Source: Squalus acanthias | Lineage: Eukaryota | Length of the DNA: 64,000 nt | Assembly: GCA_030390025.1 (NCBI GenBank) | Contig: CM059440.1 | Location: 58,714,001-58,778,000 of the forward strand | Direction of reading: 5' to 3' | In this document: positions 3,092 through 60,705 of the stretch, in pieces | Layout of the letters: every line of letters starts with the position of its first letter | Numbering within the stretch: position 1 is the first letter of the stretch | Made by a program: the position numbers and the translations under genes | The notes under the pieces: model-generated | What the model saw: the letters and a program-made list of their open reading frames with translations, nothing else | Databases searched by the model: none | What the model was told of the DNA's origin: nothing

Positions 3092-3186
3092 TCAGTCTGG
3101 CTCAGGTCTTTTGAGTACAGAATTGAAATTCTCATTATCGAACACTGTTCTCAGTGAGGGCAAGTGTGTCATCATTGCCAGACTGA
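3092..3186 (-). ncRNA. SNORD103: C/D box snoRNA, SNORD103 family, second copy, intron 9
   Basis: Identical to the copy at 1494-1588. Confidence 0.93.
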
Positions 3187-17479: not shown

Positions 17480-18090
17480 AGTTATATCGTCTATCTCGTC
17501 CCAAGGCACTTCACAGCCAATTAATGACTTCTGAAGTGTGGCCACTGTTGTTATGTGAGCAAAGGTGGCAGCTATTCTTGCAATGAGATGATTGACCCGT
17601 TAATGTGCTCTGGTGGTGTTGGTTGAGAAACATTGGTCAGACTACTCCCATGCTACTCTTCAAAATAGTAAAACAGAAAATGCTGGAGATACTCAGCGGG
17701 TCAGGCAGCATCTGTGAAGAGAGAAACAGAATTAACGTTTCAGGTCGATGAGCTTTCGTCTGACAAAAGGTCATCGACCTGAAACGTTAACTCTGTTTCT
17801 CTCTTCACAGATGCTGCCTGACCTGCTGAGTATCTCCAGCATTTTCTGTTTTTATTTCAGATTTCCAGCATCTGCAGTATTTTCTTTTTGTATTAGTACC
17901 ATGGGATCTTGTACGCCCACCTCAACAGGCAGACTGGGCTTCGGTTTAATATTTCTTCAACAAAGCAGCACTCTCTCAGGTACTGCACCCAAGTGTCAAG
18001 ACGAGATTATATGCTCAAATTCTGGAGCGAGGCTTGAACCTACAAGCTTCAGATTCATGTGAGTGCGCTAATACAGAGCGAAGCCGATAC
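17480..18090 (-). mobile_element. Deu-type tRNA-derived SINE interrupted by a palindromic element
   Basis: Matches the 30415-30820 copy on both sides of the insertion. Confidence 0.7.
17671..17893 (+). mobile_element. Penelope-derived palindromic element with a hammerhead-like core
   Basis: ~90-bp inverted arms centred on 17761; CTGACAA-AAGGTC-ATC-GACCT-GAAACGTT; TSD tagta at 17666-17670 and 17894-17898. Confidence 0.75.
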
Positions 18091-30820: not shown

Positions 30821-32191
30821 CTAAGTACTGTGATAGGTCCCACACTGTCTAGCACAGGAATAGCATAACCAGTACTACTCTACAGCTAAGTTGAGACAGT
30901 TTGGAATGTGACCCCGAAGCAACTTAACACAATGTGTATTTTTCCTGTGATCAGCATTTTGATAGAAACAGCAAATTATATTTATGATGCCTCATCCAGA
31001 GATGAAATATGTCTGTATGTCAGAAATCTAGAGGGATGAGTTTCAACAATGAGCCGAACGTCATCTTTTCATCCCTGGCTATTCCGTTGTTCTTAAATCA
31101 AAGGCAGTTTACACCTATACGTAAAGCAAGCTACTCGAAAAGTATGAAATGAAAGGCCTGTGTAGACGATAATAGAAATCACATATACTGTCAGCAGCCG
31201 GTGTGACATGTCATCAGAATGCAGCAGAAAAGGCTACCTCTTTATACGAGCGCACAATATTTAGAATTCAACAGATGGAAATAAATGCACTCCATCCACA
31301 GGGCACTGCCCTTGGGAGCCAGGCACTCCTTGCAAATCCAGGAAGAGTGCTGTAACGAACATCCATAGCAAAGCATAAACACAAGAGATGGAAAAGCCAG
31401 GTGCTGTAATGGAGCCTTAAAATGGGGGAGGCTTGAGTGATATATTTTTGTTTTGCTTTTTAAAACAAATATTTCCAAACTGAAACCATTTATTTTCTTT
31501 GATCTGGAAAGCTTGTAGTGAAACTACAGATTCAATTGTAGAAAAGGAATGTGAGTAAAATTAGATATTTAATTCCGGAGGGGTTACGAGCTGAAAACAT
31601 GTTGACTTGCTCTTCCTTTTAAATTGAGTATATGAGCTCTCCCACCACAGCTTGCCACCCATTTCTTTTGGGTTTTCACACTTTATAAAGCATTTTGGAA
31701 TGTTTTCTACTTTAAAGGTGTTACATAATTTGTCATTTATCTTACTGCTATTCGTGGAAATTTGCTGTGCGCAAATTGCCTGCCACATTTTTCTACAAGC
31801 AACGACAAAAGTTCTCCATTGGCTGTAATGCGCTTTGGGTTGTTCCGAGGTGGTGAAAGGGGTTTTAGAAATGCAACTTCTTTTTCTAGAGAGGCAAAGT
31901 TGTCCTGTTGCATTCTGGACCACCGGTATCCCAAGTTTTAATATTCTGTCCTTCTCAGTTCTATCCCTGAAAAACTCTTCATTTTTCTCCACTATTCCGA
32001 CTGTTGCCACAGCTTCTTTCCACTTTCTACACATTTTCAATGTCATGATAGTCAGCCCAGGAACAGGAATACCTGCTCGTCGATCAGAGACCCTCAGCGA
32101 GTTTATCCGGTGACTGAGTCGCGTGACCAGGAAGATCCCAGGTTTGATCCCCAGTTTATCGTGGGCTAACTAATCATAGCCAGGTGGTGGT

Positions 32192-32834: not shown

Positions 32835-33845
32835 TATATTTGTCTCACTTTCCCCTCCATTTGCCTTTCACCATCACTTTTGTCATTCAATCACGCCTGC
32901 CCTCCAACTTATCAGACCTCTCCCTTTTGTTCTTTTCCTGTCCCTTTTTCCCTGGCTCTGTACTTGCTTAAAAGCTGTCATGATGCGGAGATGCCAGGCG
33001 TTGGACTGGGGTGGACAAAAATGAGAAGTCGCACAACACCAGGTTATAGTCCAACAGATTTATTTAAAATTACAAGCTTTCGGAGCTATCGCCCCTTCCT
33101 CAGGTAAGGTTACAATGAGTGAATCTACAAAAGTTCACAGAATATAAACACAGAAACTGCAGATACAATCTTTCAGGGAAGGTGTCCTTACATCAAAGAC
33201 ACAATACCAAGAGCACAGCCAAGACAATGAGATGTGTCCCAGGGGGTCCAACGTGTCAAATCCTGCTGTCTGCAGTGTTTTTTTTTGTGGGTTTTTTTGT
33301 GTTTGTTTTTTAAAAACTGGAAAGACAGAAAACGATGTCAAGTCAAGTCATGTTCTGTAGCGTGACATGAACCCGATATCCCTATTAGGGATATCGGGTT
33401 CATGTCACGCTACAGAACATGACTTGACTTGACATCGTTTTCTGTCTTTCCAGTTTTTAAAAAACAAACACACACAAAAAAAAACACTGCAGACAGCAGG
33501 ATTTGACACGTTGGACCCCCTGGGACACATCTCATTGTCTTGGCTGTGCTCTTGGTATGTCTTTGATGTAAGGACACCTTCCCTGAAAGATTGTATCTCT
33601 GCAGTTTCTGTGTTTATATTCTGTGAACTTTTGTAGATTCACTCATTGTAACCTTACCTGAGGAAGGGGCGATCGCTCCGAAAGCTTGTAATTTTAAATA
33701 AATCTGTTGGACTATAACCTGGTGTTGTGCGACTTCTCATTTTTGCTTAAAAGCTGTTCCATCTCTGAACATCTTTCAGTTATGATGGAAGGTCATCGAC
33801 CTGAAACGTTAATTCTGTTTCTCTCCACAGATGCTGCCTGACCTT
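32835..33845 (+). mobile_element. Penelope-derived element hosting the large palindromic insertion
   Basis: Pyrimidine-rich body at 32835-32978 resumes at 33758 with ggtcatcgacctgaaacgttaattctgtttctctccacagatgctgcctgacct, as in the 17671 element. Confidence 0.65.
32979..33745. mobile_element. Large fold-back insertion with Penelope-like termini
   Basis: Arms 33016-33384 and 33386-33745 with a 1-nt spacer; TSD ttgcttaaaagctgt at 32964-32978 and 33743-33757; CTGAGGA...GAAAGCTT core in each arm. Confidence 0.88.
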
Positions 33846-34514
33846 TGCAGAATTTTCTAAGTTTAAAAAAAAAATACAAATTAGCTTGGCTGAGCTGGGT
33901 CCCTCTTCCAATTTTGACTAGAGGAACAACGTGACAAGATATGCATGAAAATGCAGGCCAATGATCAATGGTGACTGAAAAAACCATCACACTCAAGTTT
34001 TTTTAAAACCATGTTTTGGAAAGCGAATTCTGTGATACCATCTAAGTTTCCACAAAAACCATAAATCAATCCTCTTGCAAATGGAAATGCATTAAATAAG
34101 TGGCCTCAGAAGAGTTGAAGCCCATTAGATTTAACTTAGGATCTGCAGCCTAGTGACAACGGAGGGACATTAGAAGGACAGGGTTGAATACAAATCTAAT
34201 TTCCCCCCACATTAATAAGAGGTGATATTTAGAAAAAATATTTGCATCAATAGCCCTTTCAAATTATATACCGAGCACGAGAAAAAATTAGAATACCATA
34301 TTTTTGCAAACTACAGCCAGACATAATTTGAATAAGAAAGCCAGCTGGCTGCATAATTCTTTATGGGGGGGTGGGGGAGGGGGGATATATCAGTGAATAT
34401 GGGGAGCAGCATATTGTTCCCAAGAGCTGGTAATGACACCACCAACACAACCCAGGCTGCAAAGAGCACCCTCAACAAACACGGTATTTTTTGATATCTT
34501 GAAAGAATCCAAAC

Positions 34515-36605: not shown

Positions 36606-37397
36606 CAGGAAACTCTCGTTTAAACGGCACCTAAATATCCGGAATTCTCTATTAACCGGCAAAATTCAGGAGCAGGTTCAGGTAAGTTTTACTGTATATT
36701 AGTGGCTGTGTAACTGGGGTTCCTGCACCTGTGGCCGTGTAACTGGGGTTCCTGCACCTGTGGCCGTGTAACCGGGGCTCCTGCACCTGTGGCCGTGTAA
36801 CCGGGGCTCCTGCACCTGTGGCCGTGTAACCGGGGCTCCTGCACCTGTGGCCGTGTAACCGGGGCTCCTGCACCTGTGGCCGTGTAACCGGGGCTCCTGC
36901 ACCTGTGGCCGTGTAACCGGGGCTCCTGCACCTGTGGCCGTGTAACCGGGGCTCCTGCACCTGTGGCCGTGTAACCGGGGCTCCTGCACCTGTGGCCGTG
37001 TAACCGGGGCTCCTGCACCTGTGGCCGTGTAACCGGGGCTCCTGCACCTGTGGCCGTGTAACCGGGGCTCCTGCACCTGTGGCCGTGTAACCGGGGCTCC
37101 TGCACCTGTGGCCGTGTAACCGGGGCTCCTGCACCTGTGGCCGTGTAACCGGGGCTCCTGGATCTGTGGCCGTGTAACAGGGACTCCTGGATCTGTGGCC
37201 GTGTAACCGGGGTTCCTGCACCTGTGGCCGTGTAACCGGGACTCCTGGATCTGTGGCCGTGTAACCGGGGTTCCTGCACCTGTGGCCGTGTAACGGGGCT
37301 CTCGTACCTTGGTAGGTATACATCTCCGTTATCCGGAATTTTTAATAAACCGGCACCATCCTGGTCCCGTACGTGCCGGATACCAAAGAGTTTCCTG
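36606..37397. mobile_element. Tc1/mariner (pogo/Tigger-like) MITE
   Basis: TIRs CAGGAAACTCT(N8)CGGCAC at both ends, TA duplicated at 36604-36605 and 37398-37399. Removing it rejoins the CR1 ORF (LKEISIS-KKKVLEKL). Confidence 0.88.
36702..37300. repeat. 29-bp minisatellite, about 20.5 copies
   Basis: Unit GTGGCCGTGTAACCGGGGCTCCTGCACCT; central units identical, edge units variant. Confidence 0.97.
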
Positions 37398-59985: not shown

Positions 59986-60226
59986 CTCTCGCCAAGTCCT
60001 GGAGTGGGGCTTGAACCCACCACGCACGACCTTCTGACTCAAGAGATTAAATAATATCCTTAATTTCAGGCCCATTGATGGAATATAGGTTTATATTTGG
60101 GATTGTTAGGGCAGCAAATACAAACCGAGGTCTTTATGGTCTGCAGTGTGTTTTTGGCTGTATGCTATGAAGGGTGAGCGACTGGGAAATGTCTGAGCGC
60201 TTGGTACACAAAGGAAAGGCACTGAC

Positions 60227-60679
60227 CTGGTGATGTTCAACATGGATGCTGTCTCCTGTCGGCCAGCGGTGCTTCCCATTGTAACCGCCGCCTCCGCCTC
60301 CTCCTCCCCCGCCACCCCCGCTGCCGCCACCCCCGGCGACTCCACTGCCTCCGCCTCCTCCCAGATGCTCCCCGGGCTGCCGCTGGAAGAAATAATCCAC
60401 CATGGCATCGTCCTGCGAGCGGCCCGCGGCCAGCGCAAGCGCCGGCACCACCACCGGCACGGGAGGCCCCATCGAGCCGGGGCCTTGCGTGGAGACCGAG
60501 GCGGCGGCCAGCGCCTGGGAGGCGGCGTGCTGTTGCTGCTGCTGGGGGCCGGCGGCGGAGGGTCCTGTTAACACCACGGGCATGTTGTGAGCGACGCTGT
60601 TACCGAGACTGTCCTGAGGCGGCGGCTGCTGCTGATACTGCTGCTGGGGGAGGGAGTCCTGCCAGAGCACCTCATTCAT
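60227..60679 (-). CDS. PUM1: PUM1 exon 2, coding part (MNEVLWQDS...[17 protein letters not shown]...polyG...[16 protein letters not shown]); the exon itself begins at 60716
   Basis: 453 nt, donor CAG|gtcagt, phase 0 into exon 3; acceptor ttttgtcttgcag at 60717. Start codon uncertain (see findings). Confidence 0.9.
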
Positions 60680-60705
60680 ACCTTAAAAACACAGGGAACA
60701 ACCAT
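60676..60705 (-). other. Upstream [12 protein letters not shown] overlapping the main ATG
   Basis: ATG GTT GTT CCC TGT GTT TTT AAG GTA TGA; the TGA (60678-60676) overlaps the ATG at 60679-60677. Confidence 0.7.

Follow-up and report, generated by a model that had tools for sequence, protein, structure and literature searches.

A near-perfect palindrome in an intron of a PUM1-like gene of Squalus acanthias is probably an inverted Penelope-like insertion

The locus and its gene context

The analyzed window is a stretch of 64,000 nucleotides of the Squalus acanthias genome (assembly GCA_030390025.1, contig CM059440.1, positions 58,714,001 to 58,778,000 of the forward strand), and all coordinates below are counted from its first letter. 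It contains a PUM1-like gene on the minus strand, and the palindromic unit considered here lies inside the 30.6-kb intron of this gene (Table 1). The preliminary description of the locus, made from the sequence alone, assigned the unit to intron 2; the PUM1-like intron is found, extending from 60227 to 29669, while the number 2 presupposes one non-coding upstream exon. The first PUM1 coding frame is rich in homopolymeric stretches, namely poly-Gln, poly-Ala and a poly-Gly tract of considerable length. Two SNORD103/85 copies were identified by Rfam on the gene strand (minus) downstream of the unit, at 1498-1584 and 3096-3182, and their presence fits PUM1, the host gene of these snoRNAs. Both copies score alike and lie within a 111-bp, 99% identical duplication.

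Table 1. Features of the palindromic unit and its surroundings. PLE, Penelope-like element.
Feature	Position	Strand	Description	Basis
Left (primary) arm	33016-33384 (369 bp)	minus = sense	5'-truncated element: putative ORF end, 3' UTR, pLTR	arm alignment
Right (inverted) arm without tail	33386-33745 (360 bp)	plus		arm alignment
Palindrome centre	33385	strandless	head-to-head junction, single T	
TSD, left copy	32964-32978 (15 bp)			exact direct repeat of 33743-33757
TSD, right copy	33743-33757 (15 bp)			exact match to 32964-32978
One-sided PLE tail	32979-33015 (37 bp)	minus	minus-strand end is ATG	no partner in arm alignment
Putative ORF end	33348-33386	minus	12 codons followed by a stop, NRDIGFMSRYRT, putatively closing a GIY-YIG PLE ORF; begins one base across the centre	
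Minimal type I hammerhead, PUM1 sense	33070-33107	minus	predicted cut after 33074	
Second minimal hammerhead, antisense to PUM1	33654-33691	plus		pattern match
Interrupted host repeat, right part	33758-33850	plus	PLE-derived pLTR of another family, degenerate hammerhead core	
Second, independent fold-back PLE	17670-17890	plus	arms 17670-17760 and 17762-17852	
PUM1 open frame with upstream coding exon	60137-60682	minus	first coding exon found; donor after 60227	
PUM1 exon downstream of the unit	29669-29601	minus	3.3 kb away from the unit	

To the right of the unit, the segment 33789-33844 is 95% identical to 17767-17824. Since this match is accompanied by a damaged hammerhead core, we conclude that the unit was inserted into an older repeat, derived from a PLE of a different family, whose left part is probably located at about 32860-32978. 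Two more features of the neighborhood were noted. At 31564-32169 of the minus strand, 800 bp off the unit, there is an open frame of 202 codons with no Pfam family and with all Atlas scores below 0.8, which is probably not a gene. The region 36702-37309, inside a CR1-like element, is a tandem array of about 10 copies of a 58-bp unit that is open in three minus-strand frames.

Anatomy of the palindrome

The near-perfect palindrome claimed in the preliminary description, with arms of 369 and 360 bp, a 1-nt centre and few differences, agrees with our alignment of the arms. The alignment contains 357 identical columns in perfect runs of 71, 73, 40, 86 and 87 bp, and the arms differ by a single substitution, situated in hammerhead loop II, and by three indels (2, 3 and 8 nt), each of which falls in low-complexity or short-repeat context. 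The two hammerhead motifs face outward, and the 5' ends of the arms meet at the centre.

The claimed 15-bp TSD was likewise exact (15/15), and of 20000 pairs of loci drawn at random with equal spacing, 4 had an exact 15-mer in common. Two features are additions to the earlier account: the 37-bp tail on one side, and 3 nt of microhomology (33743-33745) that belong both to the right arm and to the adjoining TSD copy. The tail is predicted to pair back onto the arm end as a short stem-loop, the fold of 32979-33075 being not significant (z -0.64). The left TSD holds TTAAAA in the middle and not at the edge; being central, this motif makes the TSD unlike an L1-type cut site. With one substitution in about 357 columns and identical TSDs, the insertion looks young.

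A second fold-back in the same window

The preliminary description implied that such a structure is unusual, which is not supported: it has been published as typical for PLEs and recurs at 17.7 kb in another family (Table 1). In the second fold-back, 91-bp arms with four mismatches flank a centre of 1 nt, and one side alone is extended, by roughly 35-40 bp with an approximate end; no clear TSD was found at 17670-17890. It belongs to the family of the host repeat, not to that of the main unit, and is older. Its centre coincides with the U in the core of the hammerhead; judging by the host copy of the repeat, the two bases on each side of this centre were complementary in the natural sequence. 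Two of the four arm mismatches lie within 10 nt of the centre.

Among the 25 longest of the 43 inverted repeats of the window, exactly two have a 1-nt spacer, and both are PLE fold-backs. Two fold-backs in one window, the main one and that at 17.7 kb, show that insertions of this kind are no rarity in the genome. Another inverted repeat, 16901-16934/16940-16973, has 34-bp arms that are 82% complementary and a 5-nt spacer.

Hammerhead motifs

The hammerhead-like cores had been claimed at 33658-33687 of the plus strand and 33103-33074 of the minus strand. We find them at 33658-33683 (plus) and 33103-33078 (minus), about 555 bp apart, and the claim holds, the min-HHR pattern having only these two matches in 64 kb against 0.05 expected. 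Each motif comprises a 4-bp helix I, the CUGAGGA core, an extra A, a 5-bp helix II with G10.1-C11.1, GAAA, a GC that is palindromic, and a cut site with UU. Both fit the min-HHR consensus in the available supplement of PMC4209133, in particular its core nucleotides, helix II, NUH site and helix I.

The check with Infernal and the Rfam hammerhead models, which had been proposed together with the claim, had a different outcome, as no hammerhead was obtained among the two matches above the gathering cut-off or among all 19 matches at E up to 10. Rfam hammerhead models contain helix III, and the minimal motifs are devoid of it. The Rfam matches to miRNAs and small RNAs (e.g. MIR5998, 69 bits vs the cut-off of 180) reflect only the perfect hairpin, and they, as well as the reading of the unit as a miRNA precursor, were rejected.

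As there is one core per strand, any transcript of the unit carries one sense hammerhead and its complement. Helix I is missing from the minimum-energy fold of the isolated hammerhead, and forcing helices I and II within the full unit costs about 69 kcal/mol in the folding model. Given this burial, the lack of in vitro cleavage reported for single minimal hammerheads (available text of PMC4209133) and the protein required by the Anolis hammerhead (available text of PMC11167929), cleavage within the PUM1 pre-mRNA seems unlikely here.

The inner part of the arms: element body or cargo

The inner part of the primary arm, 33106-33384, had been described as about 280 bp unlike any other repeat of the window and interpreted as cargo. 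The former observation is correct, as this part is single-copy within the 64-kb window, and the outer part of the arm has no other copy there either. The interpretation is not supported: the inner part reads as an ORF end and a 3' UTR with no obvious junction at the border, which makes element body probable, short of proof.

In particular, the minus-strand frame that crosses the centre reads PNRDIGFMSRYRT and then a stop codon; the mirror frame on the plus strand has Ile where the minus strand has Asn. The stop codon is located 245 nt ahead of the hammerhead core and 369 nt ahead of the tail end, the latter distance being a plausible length for a 3' UTR together with the pLTR. In the alignments examined, GIY-YIG domains of PLEs have a conserved Asn at the end, and the Neptune rows continue with R/E/G and, where shown, with another residue and a hydrophobic one. 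The match of the 12-codon remnant to these alignments is limited to the Asn and, in a loose sense, to the 2-3 residues after it, and full Neptune C-termini were not found in the supplements searched. At the border between the outer and inner parts, about 33105, inspection by eye reveals neither poly(A) nor a repeat nor a clear shift in composition. A closely similar dozen residues presumably closes the PLE ORFs of shark assemblies.

Protein searches with the centre peptide, including versions read through the stop and versions of longer and near lengths, yielded two candidates at most and no match at E up to 10, the peptide being too short for the tools, and the search with the antisense pLTR frame yielded none as well. 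The two HMMER matches of a 31-residue pLTR frame are unrelated tandem-repeat proteins and were rejected. Among 11 window frames analyzed with Pfam, the five overlapping the unit or its left flank had no family; strong matches were obtained only elsewhere in the window, to the CR1-type endonuclease and RT. Scans for contaminating eukaryotic copies in contig collections, which are not eukaryotic genome sets, gave no matches.

Overall, we consider it probable from the codons and the spacing that the inner sequence consists of the last codons of the PLE ORF and the 3' UTR. The alternative is a fold-back PLE that has captured host or foreign DNA in its inner 280 bp. It would account for an inner sequence that has no other copy in the window and no retrieved homologue, and it has a precedent in Adineta, where host DNA is captured between pLTRs (available text of PMC3846280). 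Still, the outer part is equally single-copy, so uniqueness is uninformative here, and both the featureless border and the resemblance of the centre-proximal codons to a GIY-YIG ORF end with a stop, followed by a 3' UTR and pLTR of plausible length, argue against cargo, leaving it improbable.

Double-stranded RNA and possible function

The predicted fold of the whole unit has the energy of -673 kcal/mol (z -65), and none of 20 shuffles is as good. In the PUM1 pre-mRNA the antisense arm would be transcribed first, and the resulting 360-pair hairpin would bury the lone sense-strand hammerhead, which in any case would need a second copy of the same sense or the help of a protein. The long dsRNA sequestering the ribozyme, anticipated in the preliminary description, is thus consistent with the modeled energies, both of the hairpin and of opening the hammerhead within it.

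The likely consequence is ADAR hyper-editing of the spliced-out intron, with little or no effect on PUM1. According to the available text of PMC5625713, lizard Penelope repeats are heavily hyper-edited, self-folding and palindromic repeats are strong ADAR targets, and about 200,000 unique hyper-editing sites are present in the elephant shark.

Nothing suggests a selected function of the unit. A co-opted hairpin could in principle regulate PUM1 via editing-dependent splicing or intronic polyadenylation, or provide siRNAs against the family, since a 360-pair duplex is expected in every transcript through the intron, and two potential signals, AATAAA at 33064 and, near 33655, a 5' splice site of consensus type, lie within the duplex on the pre-mRNA strand. 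We regard this as very unlikely, given that the insertion looks young and that the unit lies within older repeat DNA at some distance from the nearest exon (Table 1). The splice-site sequence near 33655 (minus) is the reverse of the 5' edge of the hammerhead, and AATAAA at 33064 has a GU-rich stretch downstream.

Mechanism of insertion

The arms, the tail, the TSD and the outward-facing hammerheads uphold the central proposal of the preliminary description, namely a Penelope-type fold-back inserted as one unit, bounded by a TSD, into another PLE-derived repeat. Our main reading, to which we assign a probability of about 85%, is that of a young, heavily 5'-truncated insertion of an EN+ Penelope-like element, formed as a head-to-head inverted duplication in a single event. 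The insertion encodes nothing. Its RT and EN domains are absent; by resemblance, the clade is probably Neptune-type.

The proposed sequence of events is as follows. The GIY-YIG endonuclease would nick both target strands 15 bp apart, and one 3' end, at the plus-strand nick, would prime cDNA synthesis at a distal start site, corresponding to the end of the tail. This first cDNA would run back for about 405 nt via the pLTR and the 3' UTR into the last codons of the ORF. The mirror arm could then arise in two ways: either a second cDNA is primed at the other nick, at a proximal start site and with the 3-nt microhomology, and is joined to the first one at the centre, or the first cDNA folds back. 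The two-cDNA route is slightly favored, as it would explain both the mirror arm ending exactly one tail short and the microhomology with the target. The available text of PMC11167929 describes a PLE protein that acts on both target strands, cutting as well as extending them, and two internal RT start sites that bound the tail.

Several observations do not sit easily with the single-event insertion. The TSD, at 15 bp, exceeds the 8-10 bp seen in rotifer examples. Three of the four arm differences are indels, which may stem from slippage, RT errors, two templates or assembly errors. Finally, the searched collections, which contain no eukaryotic genome sets, yielded neither a full-length relative nor another genomic copy.

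A more specific proposal, which we put forward tentatively and consider rather doubtful, is that the junctions record twin priming: two RTs at two nicks would begin at the two known start sites, stop at the same point of a truncated RNA, and have their cDNA ends joined. It is based on the fact that in both fold-backs, from two families, just one of the arms is extended and the 1-nt centre is apparently placed on a natural 2+1+2 micro-palindrome; in the main unit, the 3-nt microhomology between the tail-less arm and the target is added to this. In the main unit one base of the micro-palindrome holds if the Asn codon is natural, and the second would follow indirectly. 2+1+2 sites occupy 4205 of 63996 window positions, and with the pattern read post hoc from two cases it amounts to a lead. 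With twin priming, the self-priming on an antisense template that PMC3846280 (available text) proposes for inverted PLE copies would not be needed. The step that generates inverted PLE insertions is described as unresolved in the available parts of PMC8557442 and PMC3846280, and the literature search for Penelope, inverted insertions and twin priming returned, judging by titles, no paper on the PLE mechanism.

Two other origins of the palindrome were weighed against the single-event insertion. Spacer-less palindromes can arise by fold-back repair, and the near identity of the arms would also be expected if an ordinary truncated PLE copy had been inverted after its insertion, by template switching at a replication fork or by hairpin-mediated repair. 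Such a later event, however, would have no reason to respect the TSD, which encloses both arms, or to end the mirror arm 37 bp short, a typical tail length, and the second family shows the same pattern; hence the chance of a later inversion is very small. A sequencing or assembly fold-back artefact is the least credible origin: inverted PLE structures do trouble assemblers (PMC8557442, available text) and errors of the consensus might account for the many indels among the arm differences, but the exact 15-bp TSD on both sides, the one-sided tail, the substitution between the arms and the non-repeated flanks speak against it.

Comparison with known systems

The comparison set for the main reading is the inverted insertions of EN+ PLEs (Penelope/Poseidon, Neptune, Nematis; Adineta Pen2/Pen2a; Craig et al. 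2021 Fig. 2), taken from the available text and figures. With these the unit shares head-to-head copies, a palindromic junction, a one-sided 30-40-bp tail, a TSD, insertion into another element, and a hammerhead in the pLTR. Unlike the published examples, it is truncated to little more than the 3' UTR and pLTR, and hence the whole insertion is palindromic; its TSD, as was already mentioned, is also longer than in the rotifer PLEs.

Each of these features has been described in the accessible parts of the literature. An adjacent inverted 5'-truncated copy with a one-sided 30-40-bp tail is typical for PLEs (PMC8557442); inverted pLTRs, a TSD of 9-10 bp, a 31-bp tail and insertion into other elements have been reported, and palindromic head-to-head PLE junctions have been called abundant (PMC3846280). 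The 30-40-bp tail appears in PMC3846280, PMC8557442 and PMC11167929, and dual min-HHRs on opposite strands, 100-700 bp apart, in metazoan PLEs (PMC4209133).

The hammerhead motifs resemble the min-HHRs of Cervera and De la Pena (2014), as given in the available text, in the CUGANGAH core, the unpaired base before helix II, G10.1-C11.1, the lack of helix III, the palindromic 15.2-16.2, the short helix I and the AU-rich 3' side, and differ from the published ones in being trapped within a perfect duplex. The searched min-HHR supplement file of PMC4209133 contains no shark example.

Anolis Poseidon PAc (Frangieh et al. 2024, available text) is similar to the unit in the tail bounded by two RT start sites and in the AT-rich target. 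One of the RT start sites of PAc lies 85-92 nt past the hammerhead cut, vs 96 nt from the cut to the tail end in our unit; the PAc ORF begins inside the hammerhead, and the candidate ATG of the unit is at the tail end. The available account of PAc (PMC11167929) does not model inverted insertions. As to editing, palindromic Harbinger repeats of Xenopus (Porath et al. 2017, available text) are also self-folding intragenic repeats for which, as for the unit, hyper-editing is expected; Harbinger, however, belongs to the DNA transposons, and the consensus of this family, about 200 bp long, is itself palindromic, whereas here the palindrome is that of an individual retroelement insertion.

Two superficially similar classes were rejected. 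The unit is short and non-coding with inverted ends, as MITEs are, and assignment to MITEs or TIR DNA transposons is ruled out by the absence of a spacer, the 37-bp unpaired tail, the 15-bp TSD and the hammerheads. Like retrozymes, it has hammerheads in terminal repeats, and with one core per strand double cleavage and circularization of one RNA are impossible.

In the literature covered, including the available text of PMC6155905 and PMC5625713, no description of the family of the main unit or of shark PLE or hammerhead examples was found. Five short motifs from the window had no match in full-text literature.

Implications

Every main feature of the unit has already been published, and it is an ordinary insertion of a known type. 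As a single locus it is of little importance, being a short retrotransposon copy, no longer alive, within an intron of 30 kb. It is, at the same time, a clean example of the published type of PLE insertion and a predictable ADAR substrate, and the two fold-backs of the window show that vertebrate introns can retain near-perfect palindromes of 180-730 bp.

The remaining interest lies in the anatomy of the junctions, which is a clue to the route of PLE insertion. In a genome-wide set of young copies, the spacer length, the microhomology and the differences between the arms could separate twin priming from fold-back priming. If fold-backs are as dense throughout the genome as in this window, with two per 64 kb, they would constitute a large natural dataset for the analysis of the mechanism.
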